From: a virus
Taxonomy: Duplodnaviria; Heunggongvirae; Uroviricota; Caudoviricetes
Length of the DNA stretch: 53,826 nucleotides
Reading direction: 5' to 3' (one strand)
IMG/VR virus record: IMGVR_UViG_2917855067_000007
Shown here: positions 1-48,420 of the stretch, in pieces
How the letters are laid out: the number at the start of each line of letters is the position of its first letter
Position numbering within the stretch: the first letter of the stretch is position 1
The notes under the pieces: model-generated
What the model was told of the DNA's origin: nothing
Seen by the model: the letters and a program-made list of their open reading frames with translations, nothing else
Databases searched by the model: none
Position numbers and translations under genes: made by a program

Positions 1-270
1 TTAAAGACTGACCTGACCGATCCGGGCTTCGCCTGTGAACTTATCGCAAAGGCCAAGTACTTTGGCTTCTTCCAGAACGGCGGATATGTCTTCGCTGATA
101 TAGCTGAAAATATCTGGAATCCATAAAAGTGGCAGGCCGTTTATCTCACACTGACGGATCTGTAAATGCATCTGGAATGAAACATTCCTTGCGCGGTTGA
201 GTTTATGGAAGCACTCAAGGCTAAGATATTTTTCAGCACTATTAACAGCAATGGTATTCAAATCAGACAT
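1..270 (-). CDS. hypothetical protein, C-terminus cut by window edge
   Basis: ORF running off the window start; low-GC DNA (~36%); no recognisable domain. Confidence 0.3.
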   Translation of the reverse strand: MSDLNTIAVNSAEKYLSLECFHKLNRARNVSFQMHLQIRQCEINGLPLLWIPDIFSYISEDISAVLEEAKVLGLCDKFTGEARIGQVSL

Positions 271-357
271 ATATTTTCCTTACAGGGGCGTAATTACTCC
301 CCGTTAAAATACGGTTATAATTAAATGTTTTTCAGTTCTTATAAATCGATTATTGTT

Positions 358-765
358 TTAGTCGTCCCACATTTCATAGGGATCATAATCAACCATCTGC
401 ATTCGCATTTCATTAAAAATAATACTAATAATATCCCTGATATATTCAGCCAGTTCTTTTTCAATCCCCTTACTGATATCCTGACTTATCAGCCCGGCAG
501 TCAGGGAAAGCGCATGATAAATATTATCGACATTAAGAAATATAACCTCATCAGCGATTTTTATTTTACTCGACTGAATTGGGGGAATATCCCGCGACCG
601 TTTTTCAAATAAAACAACCAGATTTAATTGCAATAATCGACAATAAAGCCGCTGCTGCTTGATATCATTCATTGCAGGTAATGCATCCGCAAAAAATGAA
701 GCACCGTAAACCAGATCGTAAAAATGGCGGTCAACGTGAAACGGTGTGAGCATAATTTCAGACAT
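358..765 (-). CDS. hypothetical protein, 135 aa
   Basis: ORF in low-GC DNA; start overlaps upstream gene by 8 nt (operon-like); no recognisable domain. Confidence 0.4.
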   Translation of the reverse strand: MSEIMLTPFHVDRHFYDLVYGASFFADALPAMNDIKQQRLYCRLLQLNLVVLFEKRSRDIPPIQSSKIKIADEVIFLNVDNIYHALSLTAGLISQDISKGIEKELAEYIRDIISIIFNEMRMQMVDYDPYEMWDD

Positions 766-1183
766 GATCTACTCCCGCCTTAATACAAGGCTGTTTCAGA
801 TATCTGACAAGTAAATTAATCATGTCATGCAAAAGCCAGCGTAATTGTGTTTCAACGTCCATACGAAGGGAGCGACTAAGCAGCGCATCATTTAAGGCGG
901 TGCAATAGCCCGTCATGATCGTCGCGTCGATCCACTCATCAGGTACGCAGGGAGCAGGAATAGCAGTCGCGGTTAATTGCGCCTGGATATGCGATGGATA
1001 GTCTGTATCACAAAGAGATGAAAGAGAACGCAGGGCAAAAGCCAGACGTCCGCAAAGTGCGACGCGTTCAGTCTCGTCAACACAACTTTCATCCGTTAAC
1101 CGCGCGACAAAATGCCCGCACATCTCGCCAGCCTGAAAGAGATCCATAGACACTGGCAACGGTGAATTAAGCAGATTATGCAT
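758..1183 (-). CDS. hypothetical protein, 141 aa
   Basis: ORF overlapping both neighbours by 8 nt; Cys-rich; no recognisable domain. Confidence 0.4.
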   Translation of the reverse strand: MHNLLNSPLPVSMDLFQAGEMCGHFVARLTDESCVDETERVALCGRLAFALRSLSSLCDTDYPSHIQAQLTATAIPAPCVPDEWIDATIMTGYCTALNDALLSRSLRMDVETQLRWLLHDMINLLVRYLKQPCIKAGVDHV

Positions 1184-1424
1184 ACCGCGCCTCCGTTATC
1201 TGGTCTTTCAGGTCAGCAATTAAGCGGTTAAGCTCTTCCCGGCCATCGTCGTTCAGCGCGTCCAGTCCGTAGTCATAAGCGGCTAGAATAGCGACTTCCA
1301 TTTCACGGGAATCAATTTCAACCACTACTTTTGAACCCGGTTTAATAAAGGCTGGCGGATCGTAACAGTCATCGTGGAACGGGTTAAGCGCCGCCGCTTT
1401 ACGGTTGTCCAGTGGGTTAAACAT
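1176..1424 (-). CDS. hypothetical protein, ~82 aa
   Basis: ATG at 1422-1424 inside the longer ORF-track frame; follows the small gene at 1417-1620. Confidence 0.35.
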   Translation of the reverse strand: MFNPLDNRKAAALNPFHDDCYDPPAFIKPGSKVVVEIDSREMEVAILAAYDYGLDALNDDGREELNRLIADLKDQITEARYA

Positions 1425-1620
1425 GGCGCGCCTCCTGAACCGGCAGACAGCCAGCAAAGCAGAGGATAAAGCGACCGGCCAGCATGGAACGGGCTTCCTG
1501 TTCGCTGTACGCGGTGATTTGTTCGCGGTGTGGTTTGTCCTGCATGTCAGCCCTTGATACCGCAAGAAAGAGAAATACGCGATTTTTAGGGTGAGTTTGG
1601 TTACACTTCGGCTTAGCCAT
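1417..1620 (-). CDS. small regulatory protein, possibly Icd-like cell-division inhibitor of P4-like elements
   Basis: 67 aa ORF with ATG at 1618-1620, first gene of a minus-strand operon next to a divergent RHH gene; family assignment from memory only. Confidence 0.3.
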   Translation of the reverse strand: MAKPKCNQTHPKNRVFLFLAVSRADMQDKPHREQITAYSEQEARSMLAGRFILCFAGCLPVQEARHV

Positions 1621-1807
1621 AGCGTTAGTCCTGTTAACGTGTTGGTCAGAAGCCCGGTTAGTGTCCCCACACTGCCGGGCTTTACTTTACAGGTGTATGT
1701 CACCTTGCAAATCAATCCTACACGTATGGTGAAATACACTTCAAGTCTTTTTTTCTGTTTTTTTAGTTGCGTATACTGAAATACACCTATTCGAGTGGAG
1801 AACAGTA

Positions 1808-1993
1808 ATGGCAACAGGTGCGAAGAATGCAAAATCGCAAATGACCACCGTCAGAATCCCCCATGAGGTTATGGAGGATATAGAACAGTTAAAGGAAACT
1901 GGAGAAAGTACAGCCGGTTTCTTAGTAACTGCGGCAAAGGGTGAGATAAAGCGCCGCCAACGCCGTAAGAAACTGGACACGATAAAGGAATAA
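1808..1993 (+). CDS. ribbon-helix-helix (CopG/Arc-like) DNA-binding protein
   Basis: 61 aa, ATG at 1808 preceded by GGAGAA; basic C-terminus; divergent from the 1417-1620 operon. Confidence 0.45.
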   Translation: MATGAKNAKSQMTTVRIPHEVMEDIEQLKETGESTAGFLVTAAKGEIKRRQRRKKLDTIKE

Positions 1994-2164
1994 CCCCTTT
2001 TACGTCGTGTGGTTATGCTGGTAAGCATCGGTTGTATCCCGGTATAATTCATCGCGTAGAATCATCTTCCTGATAAACCCTCTCATCGTTTCTTGTTCGT
2101 TCCGGTGAGGGGGTTTTCTTTTATCTGGTCAACACTGTCAAAGCTGGCTGTACTGCAGCAGGTT

Positions 2165-3172
2165 TTAAACCAGCGTCACGGCGTTCTCATCGCTGGCCGC
2201 GTAAAGATAGCCATCCCCCAGCGCGTAACCTTCTTCACGTAAATAGCCATGCTCATAAACACCTCGTTGCGGGATATCCTCCGCGCGGTAGTGTTGGCTG
2301 TGTTTCAGCGTCAGGATCTGCAAATTTTTCAGCGTCGTAACAGCCAGGCGCTTACCCGGCATAAACGGCGGGATAAAGGCAAAACGACCGGCGACACTGC
2401 TTGTCAACATATCCCCCGCCGTCAGCGTCAGTGGTTGATCGGCCATGTTGAACAGTTTCAGGCGTTCGCGGGCGGCAAGCTGCGCGCCAACCATCACCAC
2501 AAGGCCCGGATCTTCGCGCTGACCTTCGGGGATTTTTGACGTGATGAGGCAATCAGCCAGATCGTGAACATCGGCAAAATCACCCCCTTTCCCCAGTGCG
2601 AAAGCATCAGAAATAATTTGTGAACCGTTATTGAATGTTTTTGCCAGCGAGTGCCAGCCAATATTGATATCTTCGCCGTTTTTATATTGTTCCGGGTTGG
2701 TATTTTCGGCAATCATCTTGCCGTTAAATCCAATACGGAGCATATCCCGCACCACGGCCTTCTTGAAAAAAATGATCATTTCATTACTGAAATTTTTCGC
2801 GTTTGCCATTACCGCCATTTCTTCATAAGTCAATGAGGCGCAGGAATCCGTTTCTGATAATAAAAAAGGTGTTCCGTTGGTTTTTAGTTTCTTATGAAAG
2901 CGACCTTCCTTTGCACGGCCTGTATAAAGGGAACCATCACCGATGGTGATCGTCGTGCCATCCGCACCGGTAATGTCCAGTAATGAAATATTATCAATCA
3001 GCCAGGACGAGCCTTTAACATCAAGCGTGGAACATCCCCATGCATCCGGAGATGCTTTTTCCGGCTGTGATATGGTGAAATACCCCGTATCTTCGTTTTT
3101 ATATTTAATATTAAAAGACTTAATCAGGTTTTCGTGATACTGCGTTAAATAATCTGGTGTTACATAAGACAT
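2165..3172 (-). CDS. P2-family (GpN-like) major capsid protein homolog
   Basis: 335 aa; conserved blocks GFNGK, GKGGDFADVHDLADC and EDPGLVVMVGAQLAA align to remembered P2 GpN motifs. Confidence 0.6.
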   Translation of the reverse strand: MSYVTPDYLTQYHENLIKSFNIKYKNEDTGYFTISQPEKASPDAWGCSTLDVKGSSWLIDNISLLDITGADGTTITIGDGSLYTGRAKEGRFHKKLKTNGTPFLLSETDSCASLTYEEMAVMANAKNFSNEMIIFFKKAVVRDMLRIGFNGKMIAENTNPEQYKNGEDINIGWHSLAKTFNNGSQIISDAFALGKGGDFADVHDLADCLITSKIPEGQREDPGLVVMVGAQLAARERLKLFNMADQPLTLTAGDMLTSSVAGRFAFIPPFMPGKRLAVTTLKNLQILTLKHSQHYRAEDIPQRGVYEHGYLREEGYALGDGYLYAASDENAVTLV

Positions 3173-3181
3173 AATTCTTCC

Positions 3182-4054
3182 TTAGTTGATATTTCTTTCT
3201 AATGTGAGTCGTTGCGCGCGCTGCTGGTGACGGATCGGCAACATATAATTTAAATATTCATCTGCACTCATCACCGTATGAATAAAGGCCATTTCAGAGC
3301 TGTAATAATCGCGTGATATTTCGGCGCGTTCCCGCTTATCTTCATTAAGAGGGTTAACAAAACGGGGATTAATGCTTCCTTCCGGGCGATATGTGCAGTT
3401 GTTCACCACCTTGTTAAGGGCAATCTCCAGTTTATCCATTTTCTGCCAGGCAAGGTCAGCACACTCAATTTCAGAAATCGCCTTTTTGAATGCCTTAGCA
3501 TCGAGGGATGACTTAGGCAGGGAACGGCGCAGATCGAGCAGTTCCACATCTTCCACGGCCAACAACACATCAATAACCGGCGCGAGCAATGCCAGAATGT
3601 TTTGTCTGATGGATAACTCTTCCTGCTGTGCCTTGACTTGATTTTTAATTGCTGCGTGATGCAGTCTGAATCTTTCATCTTCTAGTGATTTACGGGCCTG
3701 CTGTGCTTCTTTAATCGTCTGCGGCGCAGGAATTACAGCCGGGCTTGGCAGACGCTGCAATTCTGCTTCAAGTGCCGCCAGCTTTTCCCGTTCAGACTGG
3801 CAAAGTTCATGCCCTTTATTAACCAGTGTAAACAGTTCCTCTTTAGTCGCCGGAATGTCTACGCTTTCCCCGGAAATAGATTTATATTCGTGGGTAAGGT
3901 GCATCATTTTATTCAGGCGATAAAGTTCAATAACGCGCATTTCATACAAACCACGGTGACAACCGTCATAAGGCTGAATAAATGCCGTGTTATTAATGAC
4001 AGCAAGATCCGCATCACGATATACGCGATGGCTGATAATATCAGTAATGTTCAT
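3182..4054 (-). CDS. coiled-coil protein, putative capsid scaffold
   Basis: 290 aa immediately upstream of the capsid homolog; central helical region; no protease motif recognised, so GpO homology is not claimed. Confidence 0.35.
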   Translation of the reverse strand: MNITDIISHRVYRDADLAVINNTAFIQPYDGCHRGLYEMRVIELYRLNKMMHLTHEYKSISGESVDIPATKEELFTLVNKGHELCQSEREKLAALEAELQRLPSPAVIPAPQTIKEAQQARKSLEDERFRLHHAAIKNQVKAQQEELSIRQNILALLAPVIDVLLAVEDVELLDLRRSLPKSSLDAKAFKKAISEIECADLAWQKMDKLEIALNKVVNNCTYRPEGSINPRFVNPLNEDKRERAEISRDYYSSEMAFIHTVMSADEYLNYMLPIRHQQRAQRLTLERNIN

Positions 4055-4253
4055 TTAATTTTCCGTAAATTTTCGCCAGCAACAAATATATTAAACACTG
4101 CATAAACCGGCATTGCCTGGTATTTTGTAACCACTTAACCTAATACTGAATAAATACTGCCAACTCCCCATGCTACGAGTATTTACAACAAAAAGAATAC
4201 ACAAAATCCTTAGCATTCAAATAAATCATATTCATCTCTGAATAAAATCAGAT

Positions 4254-4493
4254 TTACACTTTGCGCTCTTTGATTTTGTTGTCGATCCAGTCGCTGATCT
4301 CACCCTCAACCCATGCGACAGAACGCGGGCCGGTTTTAATCGGCTTTGGAAAGACATTTGCATTGATATCTTTATAAATACTGGCGCGACACCGCCCCGT
4401 AAGCATCATAACTTCAGGCAGGCGGATCAATCTTTTTCCTTGGTTTAAAAGCTGCATTGCATCATTTCTCATATTCACACCCGCTATTAACAT
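4254..4493 (-). CDS. alpA: AlpA-family transcriptional regulator
   Basis: 79 aa; core LIRLPEVMMLTGRCRASIYKD...FPKPIK...GPRSVAWVEGEI matches the AlpA HTH family. Confidence 0.7.
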   Translation of the reverse strand: MLIAGVNMRNDAMQLLNQGKRLIRLPEVMMLTGRCRASIYKDINANVFPKPIKTGPRSVAWVEGEISDWIDNKIKERKV

Positions 4494-5042
4494 TCAAACG
4501 TTATGTAATATCTTTCTATATACAGACATTGACTTTATAGGATGCCTGTAGATTGGATGAAGTCATTGTTATTCACGCCATAAGTGCATGTCAAAAAGAT
4601 GTATGTGGGATGTGGGGCTTGACTTTTAGTTAAGTCAATTTAAGCCTCAGGAAGACTCTAGAAGCCTCTGAAAGGATTTATGGTTTGAGTGAAATCAATT
4701 AGCCAGATATAAAGACACTAAAAATCAAACAAACAACAACAAAAATGAAATAAAAATAAAACACAATAAAAACAGATTTTAGCAAAAAGTGCCAACTATA
4801 TAATGTTAATTCCTATAAATAAGATTTTTATAAATTAACACCATAAAAACAACAATCAAGAGCACAATTAATAATCAAAAAAAGAAATATTTCATATTAA
4901 TCAATAGATTAGTAATCTTGGTGTTTTTTATAAAATTTCCAAAATCATAATTCATTGAAAATGATAATAAAAAGTTTAAGCGTGGATGCTGAGTGTCCAC
5001 GCCTAACATCTAATTTAGCGGTATTCCCGTCTTAGACCTTCT

Positions 5043-6233
5043 CTAATCTTTTACCCTGCCACTCGCCAGCGATTCCATATAGTCGGCATACCATTGAAGC
5101 ATTTCCCGGCGTCCATCCAGATAGCGGGCATGATTATATGTGCCACGGATGGTATTTTTATCAACATGTGCAAGCTGGGTTTCGATCCATTCGGTGTTAT
5201 ACCCTTTCTCATACAAAATTGTGCTCATGGTATGTCGGAAACCATGCCCGCAAGCTTTGCCCTTATACCCGAGTCGCTTTATTAGCTGATTAATTGCTCC
5301 TTCACTCATTGGCTTTCGCGGGTCGTTCCGGCCCGGAAAAATGAAAGGATTGCGGCCCGACAACTCTTTTAATTGCCCGAGAATAACCATAGCCTGGCGA
5401 GAAAGCGGGACAACGTGCGGACGTCTTTTCTTCATTCGCTCTTTGGGGATCTCCCACAAGGCATTATCAAAATCAATCTCTGACCACGGGGCCGCGCGTA
5501 ATTCAACCGGACGTAACCCCACAAGAATAAGCAGACGCAGCCCCAAAATAACCTGAACGTTACTTTTTGCCGTCGCCAGCGTCTGGAAAAATTCGGGTAA
5601 CTCTTCGGCTTCCAGATGGGGGAAGTGCTCCCCTTCGTGTCCTTCCATAGCCACAGATAGATCAGGGGCGGGGTTATATTCTGCGCGGGCGGTAACGATC
5701 GCATACTTCCAGACCTCCCCGCACCACTGGCGAACCTTACGGGCCTTTTCAGTCGCTCCCCTATTCTCGATGCGTTTAAGCGTATTCAGCAAATCAAGGG
5801 GCTTTATTTCCGTGATGGGGCGTTTTCCAATCCAAGGGAATATGTCTTTACTGAATGCTTCCAGAATGTCCGAGGCGTACCCCTCAGACCATTTCTTCTG
5901 CCGTTCTGTATGCCACTCTCTGGCGATTTCTTCGAAGGTGTTTTTGATTTGCGCTTCGCGGTTCAATTTTTCTTCCCGCTTCGCTTCGTTCGGGTCGATC
6001 CCCCCAGCCATACCCCTTTTGGCCTCATCTCGTTTCGCCCTGGCATCAGCCAGGGTTACATCGGGATATACCCCCAGCGCCAACAGCTTTTCTTTTCCGG
6101 CTACCCGGTACTTTAAACGCCAGTACCGGGAACCATTGGGATTAACAAGCAGATAAAGCCCACCACCATCGGCCAGTTTATAGGGTTTTTCTTTCGGTTT
6201 GGCCGTATCGACCTGACGGGCATTTAGTTTCAT
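5043..6233 (-). CDS. int: tyrosine integrase, P4-type
   Basis: ATG at 6231-6233 (MKLNARQVDTAKPKEKPYKLADGGGLYLLV); C-terminal R/H/Y catalytic region (HGFRHT); 140 bp from the att repeat. Confidence 0.85.
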   Translation of the reverse strand: MKLNARQVDTAKPKEKPYKLADGGGLYLLVNPNGSRYWRLKYRVAGKEKLLALGVYPDVTLADARAKRDEAKRGMAGGIDPNEAKREEKLNREAQIKNTFEEIAREWHTERQKKWSEGYASDILEAFSKDIFPWIGKRPITEIKPLDLLNTLKRIENRGATEKARKVRQWCGEVWKYAIVTARAEYNPAPDLSVAMEGHEGEHFPHLEAEELPEFFQTLATAKSNVQVILGLRLLILVGLRPVELRAAPWSEIDFDNALWEIPKERMKKRRPHVVPLSRQAMVILGQLKELSGRNPFIFPGRNDPRKPMSEGAINQLIKRLGYKGKACGHGFRHTMSTILYEKGYNTEWIETQLAHVDKNTIRGTYNHARYLDGRREMLQWYADYMESLASGRVKD

Positions 6234-6395
6234 TTGGGGGTATCTCCAGTAGCCCACACAGCATATACCCCCGAATATCCCCCCAAAAGACGTGGATTTT
6301 AGGAGATATTGATAGACGTTAAAACACTATCGGGGGCGCTCAAAGCTAGAGTATATGCGGGTTTGTTGGATTTTAATAGACGGGAAAAGACGTTG

Positions 6396-35292: not shown

Positions 35293-35445
35293 CAGTGTTC
35301 ACCTTTTAGTGATGAACCTTGTCACACAGGATTCCGGCCCACAGAAAGGCACCGATCACCAAACCGGCATCCTCAAGGGTCATCCTGAAAGGTTCTGTGT
35401 TCATAAGTCGCGCGTGTGAAGCGCGTTTACTGCGGACATAAAAAA

Positions 35446-36642: not shown

Positions 36643-36864
36643 ATCCTCACCCCGATGTACACGGATGGTGCAATATGTTTGAAAAGATCGGAGTCTACGG
36701 GTTAGTTTTTACAGCAAACGTTGTTCTCAACGACGCTCAAAAAACAGAAAATTAAAAATAATGTGGTTAAATATTTTAAAAGAAAAACCATCTATTAAAT
36801 AATAATGCGGGATATATTTTTCTATTTAGTGTAATGTATACGGCCATTTATACAGGAAAAGCCT

Positions 36865-41337: not shown

Positions 41338-41594
41338 AAATTTACCTTATTGTTATAACCAAAGGAATTATAAAGTAAAAAAAGTTCACTATCACTAGCC
41401 ATTAACGACATCAATTTCAGAGAAACATGGTACTCATTTCCACAAATTTGACACAAGTCATTTTCATCTACATATTCCATCATACTTGATGCATATGTTA
41501 TTGAAGCCTCTATCCTATCCGTTCATAATAGCAATAGTTACCCGGGTGATAGTACCTCTATGATTACTCGTCTTTCTGATTGATTGGATTAAAT

Positions 41595-44735: not shown

Positions 44736-45428
44736 ATGAAAAAAGAAACTCTTGCTGATCGCTTAAACCTAGCGATGGAACAATCTGGAATGTCTCAAGG
44801 CGCTCTTGCAAAGGCGTCTGGCGTAGCTCAACCCACAATCTGGAGACTGACAAGCGGCAACGCGCGCGGCTCAACAAAAATTGTTGAAATAGCTAATGCA
44901 TTGGGTGTTCGAACAGAGTGGCTCTCATCAGGCATAGGCCCGATGAGAAATGACGGTCAACAATCAGGGAAGCCTGCTGTCAACCATTCCAAATACTTCA
45001 AGATTGACGTTCTTGATATAGAAGTCAGTGCCGGGCCGGGTGTCATCAACCGTGAGTTTGTAGAAGTCCTACGCTCGGTTGAGTACTCGTTTGACGATGC
45101 TCGTCACATGTTCGATGGCAGGAAGGCGGAAAATATCCGCATCATTAACGTGCGTGGTGACAGCATGTCAGGAACTATCGAACCAGGTGATCTGCTGTTC
45201 GTTGATATCACGGTTAAATCTTTCGACGGTGATGGTATCTATGCGTTTCTGTATGACGACACAGCCCATGTAAAGCGCCTGCAAATGATGAAGGATAAGC
45301 TACTGGTCATCTCTGATAACAAAAGCTACTCACCGTGGGACCCGATCGAGAAAGACGAGATGAACCGGGTATTCATCTTCGGTAAGGTTATTGGGAGCAT
45401 GCCGCAGACGTATAGGAAACATGGTTAA
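44736..45428 (+). CDS. cI: CI repressor (XRE HTH plus LexA-like S24 peptidase domain)
   Basis: 230 aa; HTH MSQGALAKASGVAQPTIWRL; C-terminal GDSMSGTIEPGDLLFVD and K residue of S24 self-cleavage domain. Confidence 0.85.
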   Translation: MKKETLADRLNLAMEQSGMSQGALAKASGVAQPTIWRLTSGNARGSTKIVEIANALGVRTEWLSSGIGPMRNDGQQSGKPAVNHSKYFKIDVLDIEVSAGPGVINREFVEVLRSVEYSFDDARHMFDGRKAENIRIINVRGDSMSGTIEPGDLLFVDITVKSFDGDGIYAFLYDDTAHVKRLQMMKDKLLVISDNKSYSPWDPIEKDEMNRVFIFGKVIGSMPQTYRKHG

Positions 45429-45717
45429 TCCCATGTCTACATAATAGACAATATTAATGATGGCGATAGCCAGAGCTCTCGCCATGACACTTTATGTTGT
45501 ATTGAATTATGCCACCCTACCACTATATATAGTAAACAACTTTCCAGCACCCCTTACCAGAATAATATGCTACCTAATAAGGATAAACAGCAATAAATCC
45601 TATCGTTTTGTAAGTGACGGATGTACATAAAGTTATTAATATGTACTAACAGTTACCTTTCAGGTAAAATGCAAGCATTATACAACTGGTTATTTATACA
45701 GTTAAGGAGGGCATAAC

Positions 45718-46188
45718 ATGGCTTACTCAGCTGCAGCGGTTGCTAATGCCTTCATTGAAAAGGCTTTAAAGGGTAAGTTAAAGAATCTGACTCCAATGAA
45801 GCTCCAGAAGCTTCTTTTTTATACTCAATCATGGCATTTAAAGTTACGCGACAACACACCGCTTTTTGATGATCTTTTCGCCAGATGGAAATTCGGGCCT
45901 GTTATTCCACCGCTTTATCATATGTTGAAGAAGTATGGAGCAAACGAAATCACTGAAAAGATTAGCGTCATCTTAGAGTGTGATGGCGAATTAAAAAGAA
46001 ATCACCCCTACAATTCAAAAAGATGATCAAGAAGCTCAAGCTCTTATCAATAAAATCATCGAAGTATATGGGAAATTTTCAGGTACCGAACTGTCTAACT
46101 TAACACATGCGCCTGGTACAGCATGGAGCAAGGGAAGTGCAGATGGTGGCCCCATTTCTCATGAGGATATGGCGAAGCATATTCACTA
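45718..46188 (+). CDS. Panacea-domain (DUF4065) protein, reading frame interrupted in the deposited sequence
   Basis: AAGGAGG then ATG; N-terminal 102 aa (AYSAAAVANAFIEKA...LTPMKLQKLLFYTQSWHL...FGPVIPPLYHMLKKYG) stop at 46024-46026; C-terminal part continues in +1 frame to the TAA at 46186-46188. Confidence 0.55.
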
Positions 46189-46572
46189 ATGAAGTCGTTT
46201 GATAGCATATCTATACCCAGTGGCACAAATGTAGGCTCATCGACAGTATCAAGTGCCGAAGATGAGCCGCCAATTACAGAAAGAATATCCAGAGGTGACG
46301 ACCTCAATGCTCAAAAAGCGGCAGACGCCAAGTCAAACAGGCAACTTCGTGAGATATTGGCGGAAAAAGCGTACCGTGTCGTAAAAAAATCACTTTACGG
46401 ATGGGCTTTGTTTCTTTTCTTTCAAGGCTGGTTTTCTATCATTGGGATAAAGGTTTTTTCCGATAAGGTAGTTTTGGCTGTAACAACAGCTGTTACTCTT
46501 AATGTATTCGCTGCTTTTCTTGGTGTTATCAGGGGATTATTCCCTGCTGCCAGTAGAAAAGATAAAAGTTAA
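46189..46572 (+). CDS. membrane protein with two C-terminal TM helices, candidate toxin/effector
   Basis: 127 aa; ATG overlaps upstream stop (TAATG); polar N-terminus, then two hydrophobic helices. Confidence 0.5.
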   Translation: MKSFDSISIPSGTNVGSSTVSSAEDEPPITERISRGDDLNAQKAADAKSNRQLREILAEKAYRVVKKSLYGWALFLFFQGWFSIIGIKVFSDKVVLAVTTAVTLNVFAAFLGVIRGLFPAASRKDKS

Positions 46573-46599
46573 CCCGGCCTCCGTGCCGGGTTTTCTTTT
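46573..46599 (+). terminator. rho-independent terminator ending the rex-slot operon
   Basis: hairpin cccggc-ctccgtg-ccggg followed by TTTTCTTTT. Confidence 0.75.
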
Positions 46600-46727
46600 G
46601 CCTCCCCTCATCACGCATATCGTCCTAAAAAACACCACAACCTCGCTTCAGTTATTGCTGTGCAATGCAAGTCACAAAATTAATTCTTTTTGCTATCAAA
46701 CATTTAATATCAAAACACATCAACCAA

Positions 46728-47634: not shown

Positions 47635-48420
47635 ATGAGTACTGCACTCGCAACGCTGGCAGGGAAGCTGGCTGAACGTGTCGGCATGGATTCTGTCGAC
47701 CCACAGGAACTGATCACCACTCTTCGCCAGACGGCATTTAAAGGTGATGCCAGCGATGCGCAGTTCATCGCATTGCTGATCGTCGCCAACCAGTACGGTC
47801 TTAATCCGTGGACGAAAGAAATTTACGCCTTTCCTGATAAGCAGAACGGCATCGTTCCGGTGGTGGGCGTTGATGGCTGGTCCCGCATCATCAATGAAAA
47901 CCAGCAGTTTGATGGCATGGACTTTGAGCAGGACAACGAATTCTGTACATGCCGGATTTACCGCAAGGACCGTAATCATCCGATCTGCGTTACCGAGTGG
48001 ATGGATGAATGCCGCCGCGAACCATTCAAAACCCGCGAAGGCAGAGAAATCACGGGGCCGTGGCAGTCGCATCCCAAACGGATGTTACGGCATAAAGCCA
48101 TGATTCAGTGTGCCCGTCTGGCCTTCGGATTTGCGGGTATCTATGACAAGGATGAAGCCGAGCGCATTGTCGAAAATACCGCATACACTGCAGAACGTCA
48201 GCCGGAACGCGACATCACTCCGGTTAACGATGAAACCATGCAGGAGATTAACACTCTGCTGATCGCCCTGGATAAAACATGGGATGGCGACTTATTGCCG
48301 CTCTGTTCCCAGATATTTCGCCGCGACATTCGTGCATCGTCAGAATTGACACAGGCCGAAGCAGTGAAAGCTCTTGGATTCCTGAAACAAAAAGCCACTG
48401 AGCAGAAGGTGGCAGCATGA
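47635..48420 (+). CDS. bet: Bet (Red-beta recombinase)
   Basis: 261 aa, lambda Bet-like. Confidence 0.95.

Follow-up and report, generated by a model that had tools for sequence, protein, structure and literature searches.

A frame break in a prophage-borne Panacea antitoxin-like gene is very probably a homopolymer overcall of the draft assembly

The locus described here belongs with systems that are built on the Panacea domain (DUF4065), whose founding antitoxin is SocA of the Caulobacter SocA-SocB pair. Membrane-targeting PanT toxins of clusters T3 and T12 are neutralised by PanA (Kurata et al. 2022, PMC8832971). In the validated pair of E. coli STEC O31 from the same study (WP_000019185.1 / WP_000287252.1), a Panacea protein of ~156 aa is encoded immediately before a small protein whose N-terminus is charged and whose C-terminal part contains TM helices; the two genes are separated by a 22-nt gap and the pair is classed as NotPhage. 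A second point of reference is rexA-rexB of phage lambda, a two-gene unit that lies 3´ of the repressor gene and encodes a membrane protein with its second gene.

The window, which denotes the whole stretch of 53,826 nt that was analysed, contains a lambdoid prophage integrated next to proA. It is 100% identical to PDIE01000025.1, a contig of the draft assembly GCA_004745295.1 of Escherichia sp. E3356 (contig position = window position + 19188). In this prophage, a Panacea gene directly upstream of a putative membrane-toxin gene is interrupted by a frame break. We compared the locus with its relatives, with a second assembly and with the systems above. All elements from the repressor gene to the terminator lie on the plus strand.

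The Panacea gene and its partner

The PanA (Panacea/DUF4065) antitoxin-like gene occupies 45718-46189 and is preceded by a strong Shine-Dalgarno sequence, AAGGAGG, which was read from the sequence at 45704-45710. In its deposited form the gene has 472 nt, one more than the 471 nt (156 aa) found in all relatives. A sequence-only reading of this DNA had placed the end of the N-terminal frame at 46024-46026 and the C-terminal half in the +1 frame, and both placements were confirmed. Frame 1 runs from the ATG at 45718 through 102 codons to a premature TGA at 46024-46026, giving the 102-aa product WP_240781993.1. The +1 frame is open from 45995 to the TAA at 46187-46189, which overlaps the ATG (46189-46191) of the downstream gene. 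This continuation (45995-46189) encodes the conserved C-terminal Panacea half (SGTELSNLTHAPGTAWSKG...HIH) and is identical to the C-terminus of intact homologues; judged from the sequence, it is not there by chance. The earlier proposal that removal of one A restores an ORF of ~156 aa also held, since deletion of one base at 45999-46001 yields a 471-nt, 156-aa ORF. The repaired protein matches Pfam PF13274 (SocA_Panacea) over model positions 1-112 of 113 with 75.6 bits (E=7e-21; gathering cut-off 25.7 bits), whereas the deposited 102-aa product covers only model positions 1-64 of 113 with 49.7 bits. The Panacea gene as deposited is thus genuinely cut in the middle of its domain. The repaired protein also matches phrog_1281 and has the form of a typical stand-alone Panacea protein.

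The partner gene (46189-46572) encodes a putative membrane PanT-type toxin of 127 aa, and its start overlaps the PanA stop in the sequence TAATG. Its N-terminal half is charged, and a hydropathy profile gave two hydrophobic segments at residues ~69-91 and ~94-118. The gene lacks a Shine-Dalgarno sequence of its own and shares 1 nt with the PanA stop, which makes translational coupling with PanA probable. The partner matches phrog_33656 (E=5e-42); searches of it against Pfam, NCBIfam and PADLOC gave no match. Across its family, an invariant C-terminal motif, TLN[VL]FAAFLGVIRGLFP, is combined with a variable charged N-terminus.

The two-gene arrangement is conserved. Near-identical prophages carry the same pair with the 1-nt overlap, other E. 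coli prophages keep it at 65-68% nucleotide identity, and with PanA at ~55% identity it was found in an integrative conjugative element (L058, next to traD) and in an ssrA-adjacent island (L059). In every example seen, which cover these three kinds of mobile element (L042 and L043 being prophages), the partner family is located behind a PanA of 155-159 aa. Homologues of 75-78% identity retain the C-terminal motifs and also the residues KRITPTIQ, which span the frameshift site.

Compared with the STEC O31 pair, the pair in the window has the same layout, a ~156-aa Panacea protein followed directly by a small protein that combines a charged N-terminus with putative C-terminal TM helices. The two hydrophobic segments and the charged N-terminus of the partner fit the published description of membrane PanT toxins, with which they were compared by description only (PMC8832971). 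In contrast to the validated pair, the window pair is prophage-borne, overlaps by 1 nt and has different accessions; the four diverged E. coli pairs that were retrieved also have accessions other than those of the validated pair. With SocA-SocB, the locus has the Panacea domain in common. However, the window PanA is not a SocA equivalog, as it scores 92.9 bits against the NCBIfam SocA equivalog model NF047745, below the cut-off of 190, and its partner is a membrane protein and not SocB. The NCBI product name is SocA domain-containing protein. The pair appears to be an ordinary member of the known PanAT type, and its toxin-antitoxin function is putative.

Prophage context and the rexAB position

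A cI-like repressor gene with an HTH domain and an S24 peptidase domain (44736-45428; Pfam and gene tables) lies directly upstream of the pair, and a terminator-like hairpin followed by a T-run (46571-46600) closes the cI-panA-partner unit. A pL-like promoter and then kil, gam, bet and exo are located 3´ of this terminator. The repressor gene and the pair, which occupies what is the rexAB position in lambda, probably form one transcription unit. It resembles rexA-rexB in occupying the same slot, 3´ of a cI-like repressor, on the same strand and before the terminator and the pL-side genes, and in being a two-gene unit whose second gene encodes a membrane protein. In contrast to this positional likeness, the two units have no sequence relationship, and an exclusion function for the window pair would be suggested by position. 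A related prophage (L069) carries RexA/RexB in the same slot.

The region downstream of cI (window 45429-46600; loci L028-L037 and L062-L071) is a variable cassette site in this prophage family. In addition to PanA with a TM protein and RexA with RexB (L069), relatives carry DUF3037 with HipA_2, DUF6932 with a 310-aa protein, DUF4411 with an M78 peptidase, an MqsA-like gene set or a single 126-aa gene in this slot, which looks like a defence or exclusion hotspot. In E. coli O145:H28 RM13514 (L042), the 65%-identical PanA/partner pair lies downstream of a LexA-family repressor, and genes for an Eco57I-type methylase and a BsuBI/PstI-type restriction endonuclease are located between the repressor and the pair, forming a small defence island in the prophage immunity region.

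Two further elements were observed. The closest E. coli copy of the prophage region (L001, NZ_CP172337.1) is on a circular record of 44.8 kb, submitted as plasmid pCE-O153H30-A, on which O/P-like lambdoid replication genes occur together with cI, bet and exo; this may be a phage-plasmid, or else a phage genome that has been excised or is episomal. Window positions 1-6300 hold a separate small mobile element with a P2-family major capsid gene, a tyrosine integrase, an Icd-like cell-division inhibitor, a derepression protein and an AlpA-type regulator. This P4-like or capsid-encoding satellite is 99.7% identical to one in E. coli JNEC-KY203, and chromosomal ethD, lysR-type and flavin oxidoreductase genes separate it from the lambdoid prophage.

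The extra base and its distribution among assemblies

Alignment with relatives revealed a single length difference in the gene, AAAAAG-AAA-TCACCCC in the window and AAAAAG-AA-TCACCCC elsewhere. The extra base is an A in the sequence GAAAT, which places the frameshift in the run at 45999-46001 (extra A at ~65187 of PDIE01000025.1); GAAT is present in each of the 20 other loci examined. Two runs to which the sequence-only reading had pointed within the shift interval were confirmed, A5 at 46017-46021 and C4 at 46005-46008. The A5 run was rejected as the mutated run, as its length is equal in all relatives.

The A3 form was found solely in the window's own contig. The 20 loci with A2, some of which share a genome, comprise Escherichia sp. 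E4694, complete E. coli genomes, nine Logan assemblies, three IMG/VR contigs and one metagenome contig; the four IMG/VR and metagenome contigs carry the 31-nt, two-base form. Eleven complete E. coli genomes carry the locus at 98-99% identity, with an annotated 471-nt Panacea gene that overlaps a 384-nt hypothetical gene by one base. The sister strain E4694 has the same prophage at the same proA site in the A2 form, and deletion of the extra A from the window makes the encoded protein 100% identical to its WP_135490831.1. The comparison with homologous prophages proposed in the earlier reading thus identifies the single-ORF form as the norm. In an exact look-up among ~15 billion proteins, the 102-aa WP_240781993.1 formed a singleton cluster from one contig; the intact variants of the same 90% cluster, in contrast, occur on 17, 255 and 226 contigs. 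The disrupting allele, sought as an inherited or shared form, was absent from E4694, from the Logan assembly of the run assigned to E3356 (see below) and from all other loci searched. An exact-pattern scan of genome contigs for either allele gave no match, and megablast against phage and plasmid collections matched the terminator region only, or nothing.

Ion Torrent sequencing has an established tendency to miscall homopolymer length, and its consensus errors fall mostly in runs of ≥5. E3356 was sequenced on this platform with single-end reads of 35-400 nt at 40x and assembled with MIRA and SPAdes (PMC6639607). A second assembly was available as Logan contig L009 from run SRR6148328, which three observations identify, almost certainly, as E3356's own run. 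Besides E3356 itself, only SRR6148328 and one other strain have the exact ProA of the window on record. Over 3920 nt, the phoE-proB-proA contig of SRR6148328 has 100% identity to E3356, against 43 mismatches for that other strain. The accessions published for the two strains are SRX3260348 (E3356) and SRX3260358 (E4694; PMC6639607), and the offset between SRR and SRX numbers is equal for SRR6148328/E3356 and SRR6148338/E4694; a contig of SRR6148338 has 0 substitutions over 14.9 kb against E4694.

Over the 9572 nt that L009 shares with the window there are 0 substitutions, and the two differ only by two single-base homopolymer changes, at 45999 and 48124. At 45999, L009 has A2 and the PanA gene is intact. 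At 48124 (L009 position 6107), the Logan contig is the deviant one, with T1 against T2 everywhere else, which leaves bet broken at 208 aa. Both homopolymer errors of the Logan assemblies are deletions, T2 to T1 in bet and C4 to C3 in Q of E4694, which indicates that the reads are noisy at runs and that the Logan assembly alone is not decisive. From this second assembly, through which the reads were seen, we infer that the reads of E3356 support A2. The C4-to-C3 change, at L008 position 1041 (window 38537), leaves a truncated Q antiterminator of 211 aa; among proteins predicted from Logan assemblies of these Ion Torrent runs, spurious truncations can occur.

To find other homopolymer differences, the window was compared with every related locus for indels of 1-2 nt, and an indel was kept as private where the window differs from all of these loci. 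Five sites were found: T7 instead of T6 at 1758 (1 other locus), A7 instead of A6 at 35440 (10 loci), A5 instead of A4 at 36754 (8 loci), A7 instead of A6 at 41377 (13 loci) and A3 instead of A2 at 45999 (20 loci). All five are +1 extensions of mononucleotide runs, and no private -1 contraction was found in the window against all related loci. The site at 45999 is within the PanA gene. Only this one gene is broken because the other four extensions are intergenic, where the long A/T runs lie; the other ~50 genes of the window appear intact, and the assembly is not riddled with coding frameshifts. A candidate second frameshift, in the overlapping ORFs 1176-1832 and 1741-2052, was rejected: in an E. 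coli relative of 99.7% identity this stretch is annotated with separate small genes, and the intergenic site at 1758 is its sole indel. In E5028, an Ion Torrent assembly of the same project (PDHW01000003.1, L066 ~4157-5170), no gene is called at the expected 339-aa replication protein O, between a YdaT-like gene and P; this missing call may be another homopolymer frameshift.

Origin of the frame break and its meaning

Taken together, these results make it very probable that the frame break is a homopolymer overcall in the E3356 draft assembly, in which GAAT was read as GAAAT. The assembly error that the sequence-only reading had offered as one explanation is supported by the Ion Torrent platform, the private allele, the four other +1 extensions and the intact Logan copy. 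In addition, the toxin-like partner gene is unchanged, and its protein is identical on 207 contigs. The consensus of MIRA/SPAdes would have kept an overcalled A, the strain itself having GAAT, and the living strain most probably has an intact 471-nt panA that encodes a 156-aa Panacea-domain antitoxin. The case resembles known Ion Torrent draft-assembly errors in being a private single-base run change, accompanied by four more +1 changes in the contig and absent from a second assembly. It differs from most such errors, which occur in runs of ≥5, in the shortness of its run, A2 being read as A3 at 40x.

A genuine and very recent +1A insertion in E3356, which would truncate PanA after residue 94, add 8 missense residues and remove half of the domain, is improbable. 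The extra base is present in the deposited consensus, and since the Logan errors at two other homopolymers are deletions, its A2 at 45999 could in principle be an undercall of a true A3. Survival of the strain would also be mechanistically plausible: the partner, which overlaps the PanA stop and lacks its own Shine-Dalgarno sequence, would need termination-reinitiation at TAATG, and a stop 163 nt upstream would probably reduce or silence toxin translation too. However, the allele occurs in no other sequence, the contig has four other private +1 homopolymer extensions from an Ion Torrent platform, the independent assembly of E3356 shows A2, and the toxin gene bears no compensatory change. Furthermore, E3356 and E4694, its closest relative, differ around the PanA gene by one substitution in 9.5 kb, a distance that leaves little time for a real indel and makes one in that interval unlikely. 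The disagreement at 45999 between two assemblies of almost certainly the same reads would also be explained by reads split between A2 and A3, either from a real subpopulation in the culture or from an ambiguous flow signal on which the assemblers chose differently. This is very improbable, as the two assemblies also disagree in bet, where Logan is the deviant one, and generic flow noise suffices without real heterogeneity; split calls or a mixed culture would in any case be a form of the artefact explanation.

The suggestion that the gene is regulated by slippage was not borne out, and a programmed +1 ribosomal frameshift or transcriptional slippage that sets PanA dosage is extremely improbable. 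Two AAA-AGA motifs do lie in frame 1, at 45994-45999 and 46018-46023, the second directly before the TGA, and by slipping +1 at one of them a ribosome would return to the C-terminal frame. AAA-AGA joins a slippery Lys codon to the rare Arg codon AGA, which on paper is prone to a +1 shift by a generally known mechanism, and leaky +1 suppression at these motifs is a formal possibility. Nevertheless, every homologue is in frame, from the 20 near-identical loci through the pairs of 65-68% nucleotide identity to PanA proteins of 55% identity, and KRITPTIQ is preserved over the site in homologues with a protein identity as low as 75%. Because these homologues are single in-frame ORFs of 155-159 aa, none needs a frameshift, and the programmed form was rejected. 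Runs of A3 or A5 are likewise too short for efficient transcriptional slippage. Should the extra A nevertheless be real, which is decidedly improbable, a truncated PanA would stand beside an unchanged membrane-toxin gene, and the strain would survive through lost TAATG coupling or through low-level +1 slippage at AAA-AGA that gives a near-native antitoxin. The locus would then be a natural example of a toxin-antitoxin pair that tolerates an antitoxin frameshift.

If the frame break is an overcall, the earlier deduction that the toxin is silent or non-toxic alone is moot, and orphan-toxin interpretations of the E3356 prophage would rest on a base-calling error. The 102-aa "SocA domain-containing" RefSeq protein WP_240781993.1 is most probably absent from the organism. 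Independently of the frameshift, a modest interest attaches to the intact pair, a candidate for a prophage-borne exclusion module.
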